DNA of 6,776 nt from the NCBI GenBank assembly GCA_041497675.1, contig JBGQGY010000159.1, positions 1-6,776 of the forward strand. Reading direction: 5' to 3'. A program made the translations under genes and the position numbers. Every line of letters begins with the position of its first letter. Positions within the stretch are counted from its first letter, which is position 1. This DNA comes from a bacterium (lineage in GTDB: Bacteria > Sysuimicrobiota > Sysuimicrobiia > Sysuimicrobiales > Humicultoraceae). The notes below the pieces were generated by a model. It was not told where the DNA came from. It saw only the letters and a program-made list of their open reading frames with translations, and searched no databases. Positions 1-6,776 of the stretch are shown in pieces.

Positions 1-2
1 CG

Positions 3-245
3 CCGACCGCGACCTCAACCAGCGATCTATCTCAGGCCGTCAACGGGCTGACGGACTTTGGCGAGCCAGGGTACCACGGGCCATGCCCGCCGCCTGGCGA
101 CAAAGCACACCGGTACATCTTCACGTTGTATGCGTTGGATACGGATTTTCCGTTTACCGACCACACGACATACGCGGCATTTCGGTTCACGATTCGCGGC
201 CATGTCGTCGCGTCGGCGACGCTCACGGGGCGTTACGGTCGATAA
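3..245 (+). CDS. 3' part of a YbhB/YbcL family (PEBP / Raf kinase inhibitor-like) protein; 5' end lies outside the window
   Basis: Not in the supplied ORF track because it has no start in the window. Frame +3 is open from 3 to TAA at 243-245 and reads ...QAVNGLTDFGEPGYHGPCPPPGDKAHRYIFTLYALDTDF...IRGHVVASATLTGRYGR*. This contains the family's C-terminal motifs DFG-x-x-GY-x-GPCPP, HRY-x-F-x-LYALD and GHV-x-A-x-A-x-L-x-G-x-Y. Confidence 0.92.
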   Translation, partial: PTATSTSDLSQAVNGLTDFGEPGYHGPCPPPGDKAHRYIFTLYALDTDFPFTDHTTYAAFRFTIRGHVVASATLTGRYGR

Positions 246-269
246 CATAGCTGCGGAAGAGTCGAGGAG

Positions 270-1577
270 TCATTCGCCGAGGAACCAGGCGGCTGCGGGA
301 AGCCAGCGCAGGGGATTGGGCAACGGCGGTCGGGGTGGCATAGAGTCCAGCGTCAACAGCAGCGGCACGGCCTTCGGGTGCTCTGCTGCGGCGGCGGTGA
401 GGGCCCGCACTTCGCGCTCCCATGTGGACGCATCATCGGCCTCGAGGCATACCTGCAGGATCAACGACGGCGCGTCGGGCGCGCTGGCGAGGAAGTCGAC
501 CTCGAACCCTTCCTTCGTGCGCACATAGGCGATGTCGTACCCTCGTCGCTCCAGTTCCAAGAAGACCGCCGTCTCGAGCGCATGACCGAGATTCGAGCGC
601 GCCGTTCGCTCAAAGAGTGGAATGAGGCCGGGGTCCACAGGGTAGGCTTTCCGGGGGTTGACCATTCGCTGCCGCTCCGAGGCGGTGTGCATCGAGACGG
701 TCCGAATGAGAAACGCGTCCTCAAGGTGTCCGAGGTAGGCATGGAGGGTGTCCTTGCTCACGGGGATGCCCTGGGACTTGAGGGCGTCATAGCACTTCTG
801 GACACTGAACAACGCGGCCGGGTTGGCCAAGAGGTAACGTTGCATCCAGCGCAGCGCCAGCGGATTGGACACGGCATGCCGCTCGATCACATCTCGCAGA
901 ACCACCACGTCGACGTACGACCGCAGAAGCGCGACACGGTCGCGTACCTCGACCCCCAGGGTTTCGGGAAACCCTCCCTGGGTGAGGTACAGCCGCAGGC
1001 GGCCATCGAGATCGGAGCGCACGGCTTTCGGCAACCGATCCCACGGCGCGTCGGGTTCGGCCCCGACGTGTCGCAGCGCCTCGCGAAAACTGAAGGGATG
1101 AACCAACACCTCCAGGGCGCGGCCCCGCATGCTCGAGGCCACTTCACGACTCAGGAGGCGCGCCGAGGAACCCGACAGGAATAGGTTCACGCGCTCGGTG
1201 TCCACCAGCCTCCGGGCGAAGGCCTCCCATCCAGGGACCAACTGAATCTCGTCCAGGAAGAACGTGGCTGTCCGCGCATCTCGGATGCCCGGCTGCTCAC
1301 GGAAGTACTCCTCGACCATCCACGAGAGGTCGGCGGTCTTGAGACCCGCCAAACGGTCGTCTTCGAAGCTGAGGAGGAGAAGTGCCTCTCGCGGCGTCCC
1401 CGCCGCGAGACGATCGGCAAGACACTGCCACAGAAACGTGGTCTTGCCGCTTCGCCGCACTCCAATGACCGCCAGGGCTTTGCCGGCCACCGCCGGCAGA
1501 CGCACGTCCCGGCGCGTCAGGGGAGGGGGCGGACTGGAAAGCCCATCCGCCATCTTCTGTCGGAGTACATCACGCAT
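270..1577 (-). CDS. AAA+ ATPase of the COG1373 type (AAA_14 + DUF4143, with a C-terminal PD-(D/E)XK-like region), about 435 aa
   Basis: Walker A GVRRSGKT and Walker B FFLDEIQ are present, plus family motifs LSGSSARLL, GGFPE, RDVIERH, PRKAYPVDPGL, GHALETAVFLEL and EVDFL. ATG 1577 is preferred over the track's TTG 1610 because AAAGGA lies 5 nt upstream of it. Confidence 0.9.
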   Translation of the reverse strand: MRDVLRQKMADGLSSPPPPLTRRDVRLPAVAGKALAVIGVRRSGKTTFLWQCLADRLAAGTPREALLLLSFEDDRLAGLKTADLSWMVEEYFREQPGIRDARTATFFLDEIQLVPGWEAFARRLVDTERVNLFLSGSSARLLSREVASSMRGRALEVLVHPFSFREALRHVGAEPDAPWDRLPKAVRSDLDGRLRLYLTQGGFPETLGVEVRDRVALLRSYVDVVVLRDVIERHAVSNPLALRWMQRYLLANPAALFSVQKCYDALKSQGIPVSKDTLHAYLGHLEDAFLIRTVSMHTASERQRMVNPRKAYPVDPGLIPLFERTARSNLGHALETAVFLELERRGYDIAYVRTKEGFEVDFLASAPDAPSLILQVCLEADDASTWEREVRALTAAAAEHPKAVPLLLTLDSMPPRPPLPNPLRWLPAAAWFLGE

Positions 1578-1579
1578 AT

Positions 1580-1633
1580 TTGTCCTTTCTGGAAGGACAA
1601 TATACCACAATATTGTCCCTCCGAAAAGGACAA
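1580..1633. promoter_or_regulatory. Two tandem 21-bp palindromes (TTGTCCYT-N5-AAGGACAA), likely operators, flanking a putative extended -10 of the ATPase gene
   Basis: 1580-1600 is TTGTCCTT-TCTGG-AAGGACAA (perfect 8-bp inverted repeat). 1613-1633 is TTGTCCCT-CCGAA-AAGGACAA (7/8). The minus strand reads TGTGG-TATATT between them, with the -10 hexamer at 1604..1599. The RBS AAAGGA lies inside the proximal palindrome. The segment is AT-rich relative to its flanks. Confidence 0.7.
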
Positions 1634-1789
1634 CCTTCCTGGCCGCTTATCCCTGCACAGACGGCGACAAACCGCCTAGAACGTGGGAGGTTGCTACTCA
1701 GCGCCGGATTCCAGCTTTACGACTAGTCACCCCTCCCCTGAAAGCGCTCGAGACCTAGACGAGCAGGAACCGGATAAGACGCCCATTGT

Positions 1790-2343
1790 GCCAGCGGCGC
1801 CCCAAGCGGCGTCTTGAACACTCCCAGCGTGTTCAGCATAGCCGCGACCACGAACCAGAGGATGAACCAGGGGAAGATCTTGACCAGATTCACGCGGGGC
1901 CCCGCGCCGGCCGCGCCCCGGCGGCCCTGCGCGATGCTGTGCGCGATGCCGAAGGCCAGGGGCACGAGCATGAGGGTGCGCGTGAGCTTGACAACCGTGG
2001 CCACCTTCCCGGCCGGCTCGCTGAACGCAAACGACGCGGCCAGGACCGAGGAAGTGTCGTGGATGGCGGTCCCCGCCCACACCCCATAGATCGTATCCGA
2101 GAACGCCAGCAGGTGTCCCAGCAGCGGATACACGACGACGGCCAGCATGTTGAATAGGAAGATCGTCGTCACGGCGAACGCGATCTCTTCCTCGCGGGCC
2201 TCGATGATCGGCCCGACGGTGAGGATGGCGGTCGCCCCGCAGATCGCGGTGCCCACGCCGATCAGACTGACCAGCCCCGACGGCGCCCGCAGCCAGCGGC
2301 CGAAGAGGTACGTTAGCCCGAGGGCCAATAGGATGGTGGCGAA
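1790..2343 (-). pseudogene. Internal fragment of a YeiH/UPF0324 (putative sulfate exporter family) membrane protein, truncated at both ends
   Basis: Family motifs LIGVGTAICGATAI, EEEIAFAVTTIFLFN, GVWAGTAIHDTSSV, ATVVKLTRTLMLVP and FPWFILWF are present. Recognisable similarity covers only about 185 aa, whereas family members are typically over 300 aa. The ORF's nominal N-terminus (2344-2463) is unrelated sequence that overlaps the divergent + strand gene. After ...APLAQWAS the frame runs into non-hydrophobic sequence lacking the usual last TM helices. Boundaries are approximate. Confidence 0.75.
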
Positions 2344-2409
2344 GTCTATCGGCAAAGTGTGCGGGTTCAAAGAAGGGAGACGGACCAACTGGTCAAAGAA
2401 ATTGGCAGC

Positions 2410-4023
2410 ATGGAAAACAGAGTCCTTGCCTCCACCTGGGCGTATCATGACGGCACGAAGCACCTCTTCCAGAGCATCCGAGCGGGTGCCGGCGGCGGGC
2501 TCGACTGGTCGAATCAGCCACGGCCATACAAAATCTACTCGACGGTTGATCCCATCCCACTCCCGAAGGACCCGCCGCTGCCGGAGTTGCCGGCCGTGGA
2601 GGCCATTGCGGCTGGAGGACGGGAGCCTGCAGGCAGGCGCGTTCCAGATCTCAACACCCTCGCGGGCATCCTCTTCCTCTCGGCGGGCATCACGAAGCGC
2701 CTGACGTTCCCCAGGGGATCAATGGACTTCCGCGCCGCAGCATGCACAGGCGCGCTCTATCACATCGAACTCTACCTGGCGTGCGGCGACCTGCCGGACC
2801 TCGAAGCCGGCGTCTATCACTTCGGGGTGCACGATTTCGCGCTGCGCAGGCTGCGCGCCGGCGACTACCGGGGCGTCCTCGTCCGGGCGAGCGGAGGCGA
2901 GCCCGCGGTTGCGGCAGCGCCGGTGATTATCGTCTGCGCGACGACGTTCTGGCGCAACGCGTGGAAGTACCGCGCCCGGGCCTATCGTCATGCGTTCTGG
3001 GACTCCGGCACGATCCTCGCGAACCTGCTGGCCGCGGCGGCAGGCTACGACGTTCCGGCGCGGATCGTCTGCGGCTTCTTCGACGCCGAGGTGAACCGGT
3101 TGCTGGATCTCGACGTGGAACGCGAGGTCGCGCTGGCACTGGTGCCGCTCGGCCGTGATAAGGCCACACCATCCGGACCATCGGGTCTCACGGTCGATCC
3201 GCTCGGCTTCCCAACGATCCCGCTCTCGAAGGAATCGGTGGATTATCCACAGATCCGGGCGATGCACGTGGCCTCCTCGCTGCGCTCAGAAGATGACGTG
3301 AGAGCATGGCGCGCTGAATCGGGCGCAGCCAGCCCGGGCGCTAACACGGCGTTCCACGCGGCGGACGTGCGAGCCTCGTCGAGGGCGCTCGTCGCGCTTC
3401 AACCGCTTGAGCATCCGGACTTGCCAACAGACTCAATCGCCCGTGTCATTGTCCGTCGGGGCTCGAGCCGGCGGTTCGCCCGCGAGTCGATCAGGTTCGC
3501 GCAGCTCTCGACGATCCTTGACCGGGCGACCCGGGGCATTCCAGCAGACTTCTTCGAACCATCCGGCGAGCGGGTCGAACCGACGGGCGCGATACTCAAC
3601 ACACTGTATCTGATCGTTCACGCTGTGGAAGGACTGGCGCCCGGCGCCTACGTCTTCGACCGGTACGCTCGAGCCCTTGAGCTGTTGAAGGAAGGGAACT
3701 TTCGAAGGGAGGCCGGCTACCTCGGACTCGAACAGAACCTCCCCGCCGACGCCAGCGTCAACGTATACGTCCTGGCGCATCTGCCGCCGATTCTAGAGCG
3801 ATTCGGCAATCGCGGCTACCGCGTCGCACAGCTCGACGCGGCCATCACGGGCGGAAAGCTCTACCTGGCAGCGTATACCCTCCGCCTCGGCGCCACTGGT
3901 CTCACGTTCTATGATGACGACGTGACGGCATTCTTCTCGCCACACGCCGCAGGGAAGAGCGTCATGTTCCTGACGGCGTTGGGCCGACTACTGAAGCGGA
4001 CGCCTAGGAGCCCAGTGGATTGA
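2410..4023 (+). CDS. SagB/ThcOx-like dehydrogenase (FMN-dependent nitroreductase superfamily) with two tandem nitroreductase domains, about 537 aa
   Basis: The N-terminus YHDGTKH...LDWSNQPRPYKIY is typical of this group. Domain 1 has RAAACTGALYHIELY, GVYHF, WKYRARAYRHAFWDSG and GFFDAEVNRLL. Domain 2 has RRGSSRRF, GLAPGAY, RFGNRGYRVAQLDAAITGGKLYLAAY and LGATGLTFYDD. ATG 2410 is preferred over GTG 2359 from expected N-terminal length, but the RBS is weak and the start is uncertain. Confidence 0.85.
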   Translation: MENRVLASTWAYHDGTKHLFQSIRAGAGGGLDWSNQPRPYKIYSTVDPIPLPKDPPLPELPAVEAIAAGGREPAGRRVPDLNTLAGILFLSAGITKRLTFPRGSMDFRAAACTGALYHIELYLACGDLPDLEAGVYHFGVHDFALRRLRAGDYRGVLVRASGGEPAVAAAPVIIVCATTFWRNAWKYRARAYRHAFWDSGTILANLLAAAAGYDVPARIVCGFFDAEVNRLLDLDVEREVALALVPLGRDKATPSGPSGLTVDPLGFPTIPLSKESVDYPQIRAMHVASSLRSEDDVRAWRAESGAASPGANTAFHAADVRASSRALVALQPLEHPDLPTDSIARVIVRRGSSRRFARESIRFAQLSTILDRATRGIPADFFEPSGERVEPTGAILNTLYLIVHAVEGLAPGAYVFDRYARALELLKEGNFRREAGYLGLEQNLPADASVNVYVLAHLPPILERFGNRGYRVAQLDAAITGGKLYLAAYTLRLGATGLTFYDDDVTAFFSPHAAGKSVMFLTALGRLLKRTPRSPVD

Positions 4024-4296
4024 GCGCGCCCAGCTTCTACGAGAGTAGGCCGCGATCGTTCCTCGTATCCAGCAGGCTCAGTTCGCCGATCCAGTCCGGG
4101 ACAAGTGAGTCTGCAATTCTTGCCCACGCGCGAACGACACTTTCTTTCTTGGTCCACAGGTGATCTAGTGGCGAGGCAAGCTGGTACTTGGCGGCGAGAT
4201 CGGCCTGGGCAAGCGCAGCATACCGCAGATTAGCGTCAATGGCCCGGAACGCCTGTTAGGGGTCCAGACGTAATCGCGTTGAATCTTTTGTCTCTC

Positions 4297-4986
4297 TCAG
4301 AGTACCTTGCTGAGGTGCATGCGGCCTTCATAGAGAGCGCGCCCGACGATGACGCCTTCCACGCCAGTGCGAGCCAGAGCCGCGAGGTCGGCCTCCGAGG
4401 CCACCCCACCAGCCGCAATGACCGGAACGGCAACAGCCCGCACAAATGCCCCGATGGTCGGGGCATCGGGCCCGGCGAGAGTCCCGTCGCGGGCAATATC
4501 AGTGTAGACCAATCGGCAAATGCCCCGCGCCGCCAGCATCTTCCCCAGACTGATGGGATCCGCTGCGGACAGCACTGTCCACCCTTCGACGGCGACACGA
4601 CCATCTCGGACGCCGAGCGAAACAGCGACCTGCTCACCGAACTGGCGGCTCGCTTCCTCCGCCAGGGTCAGGGCATCGGTGCCCAACAGCACGCGCGCGG
4701 CCCCGGCATCCAGTACCTCCTCCAGGTGGCTCACCGCGCGGACGCCGCCGTCGACCTGGATTGGCACGCCCACAGCCGCAATCGACCGGATGACGTCAAG
4801 CTGAACGGGGTGTCCTGTGAGCGTCCCCTCCAGATCCACCACGTGAAGCCACCTCGCCCCCTCACGTACCCACCGCGTAGCCGCTTCGACCGGATCATCC
4901 GCGTACACTGTTTGGGGCCGTGCATCGCCCGGAACGAATCGCACGCAGCGGCCTCGCCACACATCGATGGCGGGGATGATTTCCAT
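4297..4986 (-). CDS. HisA/PriA-like (ProFAR isomerase family) TIM-barrel domain, 229 aa, divergent; has its own in-frame ATG and RBS
   Basis: Motifs IIPAID(8), G-x-CVR, DPVEAA, LHVVDL, QVDGGVR, RVLLGT, VAVEGW, YTDIARDGTLAGP, PVIAAGGV and GVIVGRALYEG. ATG at 4986 is preceded by GAGGAG (4998..4993) at 6-nt spacing. No hisA symbol is given because several conserved positions are changed and the context is folate rather than histidine. Confidence 0.88.
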   Translation of the reverse strand: MEIIPAIDVWRGRCVRFVPGDARPQTVYADDPVEAATRWVREGARWLHVVDLEGTLTGHPVQLDVIRSIAAVGVPIQVDGGVRAVSHLEEVLDAGAARVLLGTDALTLAEEASRQFGEQVAVSLGVRDGRVAVEGWTVLSAADPISLGKMLAARGICRLVYTDIARDGTLAGPDAPTIGAFVRAVAVPVIAAGGVASEADLAALARTGVEGVIVGRALYEGRMHLSKVL

Positions 4987-5517
4987 CCGTGACTCCTCGG
5001 GCCCAGCTCCTCCTGGCACGGGCCCCTCTTGCGAAGACGCAATCTTCCGCACTATCTGATCACCCCCCACGACCGCCAGTAGATCCCGGACGAGGCGGCC
5101 GTCAGGCAGGCACGCGTCTGGATCAAGCTCCGCAAGCGGCAGAAGAACGAACCGCCGATGCGGGAGCTCCGGATGCGGGATCCTGAGCCGGTCGGAATCC
5201 ACGATGCGTTGGTCATAGAGCAGCAGATCGATATCGATCATGCGCGGCCCCCACCGGACCGTCCGAGTCCGACCAAGCCCGTCCTCCACCCGCTGCAGCA
5301 CATCCAGAAGCGCATGCGGGTCAAGCGTCGTCTCAATCAGCAGGACCCGATTGAAGAACCAGGGCTGGGATACCAGACCCACGGGTTCGGTCTCGTAGAT
5401 CGACGAGCGGGCCAGAAGGCAAATCCCCGGTACGGCGGCCAGCCGAGTTTCGGCCTCCCGCAGCAATGTCAGTCGATCACCCAGGTTCGAGCCCAAGCCA
5501 AGGTACGCGCGGGACAT
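4297..5517 (-). CDS. folK: Fusion ORF: 2-amino-4-hydroxy-6-hydroxymethyldihydropteridine diphosphokinase (FolK/HPPK, aa 1 to ~159) + ~18-aa linker + HisA-like isomerase barrel (aa 178-406)
   Basis: HPPK motifs: AYLGLGSNLGD, SSIYETEPVG, FFN, GRTRTVRWGPRMIDIDLL, IPHP and RRFVLLPLAEL. There is no stop before the HisA-like domain. ATG 5517 lies 2 nt after the folB stop. Confidence 0.92.
   Translation of the reverse strand: MSRAYLGLGSNLGDRLTLLREAETRLAAVPGICLLARSSIYETEPVGLVSQPWFFNRVLLIETTLDPHALLDVLQRVEDGLGRTRTVRWGPRMIDIDLLLYDQRIVDSDRLRIPHPELPHRRFVLLPLAELDPDACLPDGRLVRDLLAVVGGDQIVRKIASSQEGPVPGGAGPEESRMEIIPAIDVWRGRCVRFVPGDARPQTVYADDPVEAATRWVREGARWLHVVDLEGTLTGHPVQLDVIRSIAAVGVPIQVDGGVRAVSHLEEVLDAGAARVLLGTDALTLAEEASRQFGEQVAVSLGVRDGRVAVEGWTVLSAADPISLGKMLAARGICRLVYTDIARDGTLAGPDAPTIGAFVRAVAVPVIAAGGVASEADLAALARTGVEGVIVGRALYEGRMHLSKVL
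4993..4998 (-). promoter_or_regulatory. Internal Shine-Dalgarno GAGGAG ahead of the HisA-like domain
   Basis: The minus strand reads CCC-GAGGAG-TCACGG-ATG-GAA-ATC-ATC-CCC (MEIIP), which is the canonical HisA N-terminus position. Confidence 0.65.
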
Positions 5518-5519
5518 CC

Positions 5520-5882
5520 CTAGGACGCACGCCGGCGGGTGATCTCAACGGCCGCGTAGTCGAGAGGGCCACCGAGCTGCACCTGTGGTTTCTTGATGCG
5601 GACGGTCACCGTGACCACGCCCGGGAGCCGCAAAATTCTTCCAGCGACCGCGTCGCTCAACGCCTCAAGCAGGTAGAAGCGCTCCTCTTCGATGGTGTGC
5701 TTGACCATCCTATAGAGCTCACGGTAGTCCAGGGTCAGCGCCAGGTCATCTCGGGTCGATGCTTCAGGAAACTCCCCTTCCACTTCCACGTCGACGATGA
5801 AGGGTTGTGCCTGGTTCTGCTCCTCTGGCAGCACACCGTGGCGGCCCATAAATCTCATGCCGTGCAATTGAATCTTATGCAT
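5520..5882 (-). CDS. folB: Dihydroneopterin aldolase
   Basis: 120 aa with motifs GRHGVLPEE, QPFIVDV, DDLALTLDY, FYLLEAL, VRIKKP and AVEITR. It lies between folP and folK and overlaps the folP stop by 8 nt (ATGCATAA), suggesting translational coupling. Confidence 0.95.
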   Translation of the reverse strand: MHKIQLHGMRFMGRHGVLPEEQNQAQPFIVDVEVEGEFPEASTRDDLALTLDYRELYRMVKHTIEEERFYLLEALSDAVAGRILRLPGVVTVTVRIKKPQVQLGGPLDYAAVEITRRRAS

Positions 5883-6714
5883 TCCTTAGGATGGCATCGG
5901 ACATTCTGGCGACACGAACCATTGACTGCACATCGTGTACGCGGACAATGTCCGCTCCTTGGGCGATGGCAAGGGCGACAGTAGCCGCTGTGCCTTCTAA
6001 GCGCTCGTTCACGGGAAGGCCTCCTAGTACCTTGCCGATGGTTCCCTTCCGAGAGGTGCCAATGACGATTGGCCGCCCCAGGGACCGAAGCTCTCCGAGA
6101 CGCCGCAGGATTTCTAAGTTCTCCTGCACCGTCTTGCTGAACCCAAACCCGGGGTCGATCAGAATACGGTCGAGCGCGATACCTACCGCCACAGCCGCCT
6201 CGATCCTCTCGGTCAGAAAGGCACGCACCTCGTGGAGAATGTCACGAGAGACGGAGTTCTGCGGTATCCTCCAAGGCATGCCCCACCCGTGCATGATCAC
6301 AACCGGGACCTGAGCCTCCGCCACGACCATGGCCATCTGAGGATCTCCTCGCAGCGCACTGACGTCATTGATCATCGCGGCCCCGGCTCGCAGGGCCTGC
6401 CGTGCCACTTCCGGCTTCGTCGTATCGACCGACACGACGGCACCGAGCTCACCCACGAGGCGCGTGATGAGGGGGATGACCCGGCGGAGTTCCTCGGCCA
6501 GCGGCACGGGCTCAGCTCCATGGCGAGTGGACTCCCCGCCCACGTCAAGGATGTCGGCGCCCTCCGCGGCGAGCATTCTCCCCCGGGTCAATGCCGCCTC
6601 GAGTTCCATCACGCCATCACCCGCGAAGGAGTCAGGCGTCACGTTGAGGATGCCCATGGTATATGTTCGCCGGCCTAGCTCAAGGCGCAGCCGGCCGACC
6701 TGCAAGGTTCCCAT
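5875..6714 (-). CDS. folP: Dihydropteroate synthase
   Basis: Motifs MGILNVTPDSF, GADILDVGGESTR, EELRRVIP, SVDTTK, INDVSA, DPGFGF, GTSRK and GADIVRVHDV. The start is ambiguous between ATG 6714 (chosen) and in-frame TTG 6759. Confidence 0.96.
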   Translation of the reverse strand: MGTLQVGRLRLELGRRTYTMGILNVTPDSFAGDGVMELEAALTRGRMLAAEGADILDVGGESTRHGAEPVPLAEELRRVIPLITRLVGELGAVVSVDTTKPEVARQALRAGAAMINDVSALRGDPQMAMVVAEAQVPVVIMHGWGMPWRIPQNSVSRDILHEVRAFLTERIEAAVAVGIALDRILIDPGFGFSKTVQENLEILRRLGELRSLGRPIVIGTSRKGTIGKVLGGLPVNERLEGTAATVALAIAQGADIVRVHDVQSMVRVARMSDAILRNA

Positions 6715-6776
6715 AGGGCTGTAGGCGGGGATTCCCCTTCGCTGAGCCCACCCCGTCAACTAAACCCCCCGCACGC

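Follow-up and report, generated by a model that had tools for sequence, protein, structure and literature searches.

What does a HisA-like barrel do at the end of a folate operon? The question is raised by a stretch of 6,776 nucleotides from a bacterium of the Humicultoraceae (Sysuimicrobiota; assembly GCA_041497675.1, contig JBGQGY010000159.1, positions 1 to 6,776 of the forward strand), referred to below as the window, in which a folP-folB-folK operon closes with an open reading frame (ORF) that joins FolK to a (beta-alpha)8 domain derived from HisA, here called HisA'. The comparative analysis suggests that HisA' is probably a neofunctionalised HisA offshoot serving the folate (pterin) operon, and the broader statement, which calls it an isomerase dedicated to folate synthesis and acting on a new substrate, appears rather likely. 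The initial annotation had placed a HisA-fold domain last in folP-folB-folK, in frame with FolK and with no other his gene in the window; the ORF list and the Pfam and NCBIfam scans agree, and among the window ORFs these scans found neither a his gene besides the HisA' domain nor a ribA gene. The features of the operon are the following.

6760..6762, minus strand: TAG in frame and immediately 5' of the folP TTG; a gene on the same strand, lying upstream, may end here
5875..6759, minus strand: folP (dihydropteroate synthase), the first visible gene of the operon; Pterin_bind 8e-78, TIGR01496 288 bits (cut-off 162.6)
5520..5882, minus strand: folB (dihydroneopterin aldolase), overlapping the end of folP by 8 nt; FolB Pfam 4.4e-32, TIGR00525 90.3 bits (cut-off 72.15)
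4297..5517, minus strand: ORF of the FolK-HisA-like fusion (406 amino acids), which closes the folP-folB-folK operon
5068..5517, minus strand: FolK (HPPK) domain, fusion residues 1-150; HPPK 1.1e-37 over residues 5-133, TIGR01498 139.4 bits (cut-off 54.1)
4987..5067, minus strand: inter-domain linker, fusion residues 151-177; sequence and length differ among fusions
4297..4986, minus strand: HisA-derived (beta-alpha)8 domain (HisA'), fusion residues 178-406 and the stop codon; His_biosynth (PF00977) 7.6e-67 over residues 179-400

The downstream pterin pathway (FolB, FolK and FolP) is thus encoded in one operon with all three proteins above their curated cut-offs. Within HisA', residues were numbered from the Met encoded at 4986 and compared with two canonical sets, 80 HisAs from GTDB genomes (among the matches listed) and the 100 of 119 database relatives that fall outside the clade to which HisA' belongs. 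This clade consists of two groups, g1 and g2, and five codons summarize how it differs from canonical HisA.

4963..4965, minus strand: D8, the catalytic Asp of beta1, retained; Asp in the window, 8/8 g1, 11/11 g2 and 180/180 canonical sequences
4750..4752, minus strand: D79 (QVDGG); Asp in 9/9 g1, Gly in 80/80 and Gly, Ala or Ser in 100/100 canonical sequences, Ser81 in PriA
4675..4677, minus strand: D104 (GTDA), beside the distal-phosphate gripper T103; Asp in 9/9 g1 and in 2/80 canonical sequences
4612..4614, minus strand: G125 (SLG), replacing the beta5 Asp; Gly in 9/9 g1, Asp in 180/180 canonical sequences (80/80 and 100/100)
4486..4488, minus strand: D167 (TDIARDG), the catalytic Asp of beta6, retained; Asp in every sequence examined

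The residues and codon positions that had been assigned initially were all correct (D79 at 4752..4750, D104 at 4677..4675, G125 at 4614..4612). The domain carries D8, R16, H48, D51, E53, T55, D79, G80, G81, R83, G102, T103, D104, G125, W136, T162, D167, G193, G194, G215 and R216. Two further departures from the canonical state are found at position 17 (Leu in 180/180 canonical sequences, Phe in the window) and position 55 (Ala in 77/80 and 99/100, Thr in the window). Position 104 is naturally variable and the GTDA motif is therefore weak evidence by itself. Asp79 aligns with Ser81 of PriA (the serine of 'ELSGG') and Glu134 with PriA Arg143, and the counterpart of PriA His50 is kept. The proximal phosphate loops (G193-G194 and G215-R216) are intact, as are His48 and Thr162, and the distal grippers G81, R83, G102 and T103 are all present in the window together with the stacking residue W136.

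[quoted passage not shown] The beta6 Asp is the catalytic acid (D176 in Salmonella enterica HisA, D175 in Mycobacterium tuberculosis PriA), Trp145 stacks on ProFAR and the distal phosphate is gripped by Arg83 and Ser103 (Arg85 and Thr105 in PriA); loss of the beta5 Asp abolishes ProFAR activity (D129N in S. enterica HisA, D130A in PriA), and the beta5 carboxylate repels the carboxylate of PRA (PMC9088769). The beta5 Asp hydrogen-bonds Trp145 and fixes loop 5 in its ProFAR-specific conformation, R85 and T105 bind the second phosphate, and PRA is bound by PriA Ser81 (which is essential), Arg143 and His50 (PMC13055916). Loss of Arg83 or of the Trp marks the HisA-inactive SubTrpF enzymes (PMC5404923). 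Read against these roles, the clade appears to have altered exactly the positions that decide which group lies beyond the reacting ribose, making the pocket more acidic with no change to the chemistry or to the proximal phosphate site.

The window signature is shared by a group of related proteins. Eight database clusters carry P19, T55, D79, D104 and G125 (8/8) and form group g1, which has nine members with the window. Five of these clusters are the same FolK-barrel fusion (406-415 amino acids, 71-97% identical overall), and among longer proteins no close relative was found with an architecture other than the FolK-HisA' fusion. Identity to the window across the five fusions, leaving out the near-identical P0001, is 71-77% for HisA', 71-77% for FolK and 47-57% for the linker, which also contains indels. 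The barrel is as conserved as FolK and the linker less so, which indicates purifying selection on the barrel; fixation of the signature within g1, combined with this conservation, argues that the substitutions are neither decay nor sequencing errors. The concern that they might be unique to one sequence is removed by D79 and G125, both fixed in 9/9 g1 members. Changes at the distal site go further in some relatives than in the window: counting the window and its eight relatives, T103 is Ala in 5/9 and G102 is Ser in 2/9, showing from the alignment that the gripper hydroxyl of T103 is dispensable in g1, and the database members of g1 keep R83 in 7/8 and W136 in 8/8. The initial caveat that the second-phosphate site is retained thus holds for the window, which keeps G102 and T103, but not for the clade.

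The sister group g2 consists of 11 free-standing, unfused proteins. None has a beta5 Asp (in 11/11 this residue, number 125, is replaced by Thr, Ala, Ser, Ile or Val), position 102 is Asp or Glu instead of Gly in 11/11, position 103 is variable and Trp136 is lost in 10/11. One g2 protein comes from an Armatimonadota metagenome-assembled genome (MAG) and bears the NCBI label 'HisA/HisF-related TIM barrel protein [Armatimonadota bacterium]'. Both groups, neither of which has the beta5 Asp, thus carry an acidic residue in the beta4 loop. R83 is kept in 18/19 database members of the two groups, and D8, H48, D51, D167, G193, G194 and G215 are unchanged in all 19 and in the window. A search of protein representatives clustered at 50% gave 14215 matches, the best full-length ones at most 50% identical, and no new members, the clustering itself hiding the clade; a search of the ESM Atlas with the fusion gave no usable match. 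Three proteins of 404-422 amino acids (P0286, P0289 and P0291) combine HisA with a C-terminal Nudix domain; they have all canonical residues and are unrelated to g1 and g2. Nudix-HisA fusions were considered as a link to FolQ and rejected, their HisA parts being canonical.

The invariance within the clade bears on the least probable of the explanations considered, that the barrel catalyses nothing and serves to bind a ligand or to regulate (for example by sensing a phosphoribosyl compound such as 5-aminoimidazole-4-carboxamide ribotide, ZMP, and tuning FolK), or that it is a decaying remnant. A flexible linker to FolK and the loss of a residue needed for the ancestral activity would fit such a domain, but both catalytic Asp residues and all glycines of the proximal phosphate loops are invariant in the clade, the domain is conserved like FolK and the g2 members are unfused.

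The origin of the clade was examined by a quick IQ-TREE search under LG+C20 (77 rows, ten trait columns masked, rooted on proteobacterial sequences), with support from the Shimodaira-Hasegawa-like approximate likelihood ratio test (SH-aLRT) and no bootstrap. The g1 clade received an SH-aLRT of 95, g2 of 97 and the g1+g2 sister grouping of 97, nested among group g3, the canonical HisAs nearest to the clade (53-61% identity, Asp125 in all). FastTree on 200 HisA domains gave the same topology. The direction of change, from canonical HisA to the clade, depends on rooting with proteobacterial sequences and on the canonical states being invariant. Nearly all g3 proteins (P0010-P0078, e.g., P0012, P0042 and P0061) end in a C-terminal Cys (..APC, ..PAC or ..VPC), an ending absent from g1 and g2.

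The family scores support a divergent HisA-family domain and not an ordinary HisA. The HisA model TIGR00007 has a cut-off of 228.95 bits, to which the window domain comes close with 224.9 bits (whole protein 222.3); g3 passes in 9/9 cases (231.4-250.6 bits), g1 in 0/4 including the window (205.8-227.6 bits) and g2 in 0/6 (163.5-191.0 bits). The PriA model TIGR01919 gives the window domain 151 bits and its cut-off of 306.45 is not reached. Identity of the window domain to the canonical HisAs of the GTDB scan is 38-47% (80 loci, among the matches listed), and no g1, g2 or g3 member was among the matches listed from that scan. An AlphaFold2 model of the barrel from a 21-sequence alignment was of high quality (predicted local distance difference test, pLDDT, 93.1; predicted template modelling score, pTM, 0.91). 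In Foldseek its best match was PriA with bound product (3zs4, template modelling score, TM, 0.91), with Salmonella HisA bound to ProFAR (5a5w) at TM 0.92 and a HisA/PriA range of 0.88-0.93; the Thermotoga HisA beta5-Asp mutant 2cff was among the fold matches. The full-length fusion model (6-sequence alignment, pLDDT 52.9, pTM 0.38) was too poor to show how the domains pack.

Conserved linkage to fol genes, together with the same substitutions, had been named initially as a property to look for, and was found both in the five FolK fusions and in the genomic location of folP. Co-location was scored where the longest contig of a HisA-type protein was identical in size to that of a close FolP relative (71-100% identical to the window FolP). 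This was the case for 3/8 g1 and 6/11 g2 proteins (9/19 in the clade) versus 0/100 other relatives; the density of near-misses predicts about 1.2 exact matches by chance, and the enrichment among clade members has p = 1e-8 by the Fisher test. A shared contig of 2571 bp holds a FolP of 284 amino acids and a g2 protein of 230 amino acids, leaving space for folB and folK alone between them, and another, of 98,964 bp, belongs to an Armatimonadota MAG. Of the five g2 proteins without a match, three lie on contigs of at most 1358 bp, too small for both genes. Among 80 canonical hisA loci used as a control (±10 kb where the contig allows), FolK or FolB was found at 0/80 and FolP at 3/80, and HisF or HisH lies within 1.5 kb of hisA at 50/80. 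Gene content thus shows a clade linked to folP, folB and folK and not to his genes. At one of these 50 loci, in an Armatimonadota (Fimbriimonadales) genome, a canonical hisA adjoins hisH (L011). This is the best hint, from the phylum of one g2 protein and not from the same genome, that an ordinary hisA exists alongside the clade, whose members would then be paralogues.

These results can be set against the view that the barrel is an ordinary ProFAR isomerase fused to FolK by chance, in which a new Asp (D104, or D/E102 in g2) replaces the beta5 Asp. The domain scores 4 bits below the TIGR00007 cut-off, the window keeps R16, H48, G81, R83, G102, T103, W136, T162 and the catalytic Asp pair, the branch of the clade is short, and g1 and g2 both gained a beta4-loop acid upon loss of the beta5 Asp, all of which would be expected of a working HisA. 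On the other hand, D125 is present in 180/180 canonical sequences and its removal abolishes ProFAR activity (PMC9088769), and g2 is without Trp136 (10/11) and Gly102 (11/11), as in the HisA-inactive SubTrpF enzymes (PMC13055916, PMC5404923). Moreover, the neighbours of the clade are fol genes and not his genes, and a canonical his-linked hisA is known in the Armatimonadota (L011), the phylum of one g2 protein. Taken together, an ordinary HisA is considered unlikely.

Loss of the beta5 Asp could also point to a PRA isomerase, that is, a TrpF-like enzyme of the kind obtained by removing the beta5 Asp from Thermotoga HisA. The D127V variant of Thermotoga maritima HisA is reported to gain TrpF activity, in work ascribed to Juergens et al. 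2000. This loss is the classic path to TrpF activity. The charge of the beta5 Asp repels the PRA carboxylate (PMC9088769). The context of the clade is folate and not tryptophan, however, and g1 adds two carboxylates, with D79 at the position of PriA Ser81 and Glu134 at that of PriA Arg143, an arrangement that would disfavour the anionic anthranilate. A TrpF-like function is therefore judged very improbable.

The preferred reading, that HisA' is an Amadori isomerase dedicated to folate synthesis with a changed distal subsite, is well supported, and the residue pattern suggests which kind of substrate it might use. With Asp8, Asp167, His48, Thr162 and the proximal phosphate loops the domain keeps the Amadori apparatus of HisA for a 5-phosphoribosylamine, and the site for the far half of ProFAR appears lost or remodelled in the clade, with the beta5 Asp gone and carboxylates placed by both distal-phosphate loops (D79 and D104 in g1, D/E102 in g2); g1 tolerates loss of T103, and g2 has lost the stacking Trp. 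Such an enzyme would still ring-open and isomerise an N-(5-phosphoribosyl)amine, presumably a smaller monophosphate whose non-ribose part is non-anionic and rich in hydrogen-bond donors. The folP-folB-folK context and the chemistry make the product of GTP cyclohydrolase II (RibA), 2,5-diamino-6-ribosylamino-4(3H)-pyrimidinone 5'-phosphate, the best candidate. Carboxylates commonly recognise the 2-amino-4-oxopyrimidine ring in pterin enzymes, which is a lead and not a test. Amadori rearrangement of this compound and ring closure would yield dihydroneopterin phosphate, and dephosphorylation would then supply FolB, FolK and FolP in turn. This conversion corresponds to the latter part of what GTP cyclohydrolase I (FolE) carries out, and TrpF together with RibA bypasses FolE and FolQ in Chlamydia, as described in PMC4161248, which agrees with the precedent cited in the initial annotation.

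That HisA' converts the RibA product toward dihydroneopterin phosphate, replacing or supplementing FolE and FolQ, is a proposal from chemistry and context and one whose chance of being right we put somewhat below even. More tentative, and rather doubtful at present, is the further proposal that g1 and g2 together are an undescribed HisA-derived 'dihydroneopterin-phosphate synthase' that acts with GTP cyclohydrolase II and takes the place of both FolE and FolQ in free-living relatives of the Armatimonadota. Several observations weigh against the preferred explanation. The window keeps G81, R83, G102, T103 and W136, a set that would fit a bisphosphate, ProFAR-like ligand, and R83 is nearly universal in the clade. 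The lost beta5 Asp might also be replaced in function by D104 or D/E102 from the adjacent strand beta4, with ProFAR activity left intact. The stem branch of g1+g2 has a length of 0.16, which is short and gives no sign of a burst of change. Co-location of the clade with folP was deduced from equal contig sizes and is thus indirect, and the TAG at 6762..6760 ahead of folP leaves room for an upstream gene, which may be folE.

A related alternative is a fol-operon Amadori or sugar-phosphate isomerase that acts on a substrate other than the RibA product, such as a formamidopyrimidine nucleotide (from another type of GTP cyclohydrolase), a uracil-type ribosylamine or a pathway intermediate, in which case FolE would not be replaced. 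The evidence for a fol-linked, catalytically intact and remodelled clade fits other substrates equally, as none of it names the substrate, and the distal site of g1 is dismantled only in part (R83 kept in 7/8, W136 in 8/8). Against this alternative, no further ribosylamine isomerisation is known to be needed between GTP and dihydropteroate. The sole documented precedent in folate synthesis, moreover, is the RibA-product route, as far as it is set out in PMC4161248. A different substrate is a fairly unlikely outcome.

The linker contains a feature that bears on how the folate-operon barrel is made. GAGGAG is found at 4998..4993 on the minus strand, 6 nt ahead of the barrel ATG at 4986, a spacing that makes stand-alone translation of the barrel conceivable. 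One database entry, P0006 (95% identical), is listed as an unfused protein of 229 amino acids that begins at the barrel Met. Separate production of the barrel may thus occur as well; the reading frame from FolK to the barrel is unbroken in the window and in four more distant fusion clusters.

At the other end of the operon, folP as listed starts at TTG 6759, relatives in the database begin at ATG 6714, and the 100%-identical database form of the window folP has 279 amino acids. The gene encodes an ordinary chromosomal dihydropteroate synthase and not a sul gene, since it scores 245.7 bits with the Sul4 sulfonamide-resistance model, far under the 600-bit cut-off. Only 17 nt of the window remain upstream of folP (the window ends at 6776). 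An Rfam scan of the window detected no riboswitch and only two sub-threshold matches to miRNA models, the 5' leader of the operon lying outside the window, and a scan of 3900..6776 for promoters and terminators found nothing over the shuffled expectation. The remaining genes of the window are the following.

3..245, plus strand: C-terminal part of a PEBP-family protein; no evident tie to the fol operon
270..1610, minus strand: AAA_14/DUF4143 ATPase; no evident tie to the fol operon
1723..2463, minus strand: YeiH/Cons_hypoth698 membrane protein, covering profile positions 81-270 of 304 only
2359..4023, plus strand: protein of 554 amino acids whose two halves are nitroreductase-like; TIGR03605 (SagB family peptide dehydrogenase domain) 154.7 bits (cut-off 78.4)

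The 5' end of the YeiH-like ORF overlaps the start of the SagB-like ORF, so that a truncation or a miscalled start is possible. The SagB-like gene is convergent with the fol operon, and neither a precursor peptide nor a cyclodehydratase is visible in the window.

Among known systems, HisA itself (TIGR00007/PF00977) shares with HisA' the fold, the catalytic Asp pair of beta1 and beta6, His48, Thr162 and both Gly-rich phosphate loops. HisA' differs in having no beta5 Asp (D127 in T. maritima HisA, D129 in S. enterica HisA, D130 in PriA), in carrying Asp for Gly79, in scoring below the equivalog cut-off and in being fused to FolK in a fol operon, whereas canonical HisA often lies beside hisH/hisF. 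The T. maritima D127V variant removes the same beta5 Asp, and this change alone reportedly redirects HisA to a monophosphate ribosylamine; there, however, a single laboratory mutation is said to give PRA activity, whereas the loss in the clade is natural, fixed and accompanied by new carboxylates. The TrpF of Chlamydia trachomatis (Adams et al. 2014, PMC4161248) resembles the proposed function as a (beta-alpha)8 Amadori isomerase of amino-acid biosynthesis used for pterins, with the same chemistry as is proposed for HisA'. According to that source, it belongs to another family, is promiscuous, retains PRA activity and is encoded outside the fol cluster; HisA', in contrast, is HisA-derived, remodelled, fused to FolK and part of a clade of its own, and its activity is predicted. 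The PriA offshoots of the Actinomycetota (SubTrpF, SubHisA and AdeK) show comparable substrate shifts at the network of the beta5 Asp and Trp145, at Arg85/Thr105 and at Ser81, as described in PMC13055916 and PMC5404923, and AdeK is a HisA homologue that was recruited into another gene cluster. HisA' lies outside the PriA lineage, however, PriA keeps the beta5 Asp, and none of the offshoots is linked to folate (PMC13055916 contains neither the word 'folate' nor 'pterin').

No description of a FolK-HisA fusion or of a fol-linked HisA clade was found in the open-access literature searched, supplementary tables aside; a 2007 comparative-genomics paper on folate mentions 'HisA' 0 times, its supplementary table aside, and the NCBI curated models include no family for g1 or g2. 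The clade is best regarded as the probable recruitment of a HisA-family Amadori isomerase into a new pathway, with a role like that of Chlamydia TrpF and an independent origin. Substrate change in (beta-alpha)8 enzymes has its textbook example in HisA, PriA and TrpF, and most of the documented natural shifts remain inside the histidine and tryptophan pathways or in gene clusters for nucleoside antibiotics. The clade would represent a natural recruitment into folate synthesis, recognisable by the loss of the beta5 Asp and the gain of carboxylates by the distal phosphate loops, and existing in two architectures, FolK-fused and free-standing. If dihydroneopterin phosphate is indeed formed from an intermediate of the riboflavin pathway, the 'missing GTP cyclohydrolase I' of some folate producers would be explained and genome-based predictions of folate prototrophy would change. 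The bypass, originally observed in Chlamydia, would then have arisen a second time independently, and the FolE-independent route to pterins would be an evolved, operon-encoded pathway and not just a moonlighting patch in the reduced genomes of Chlamydia.

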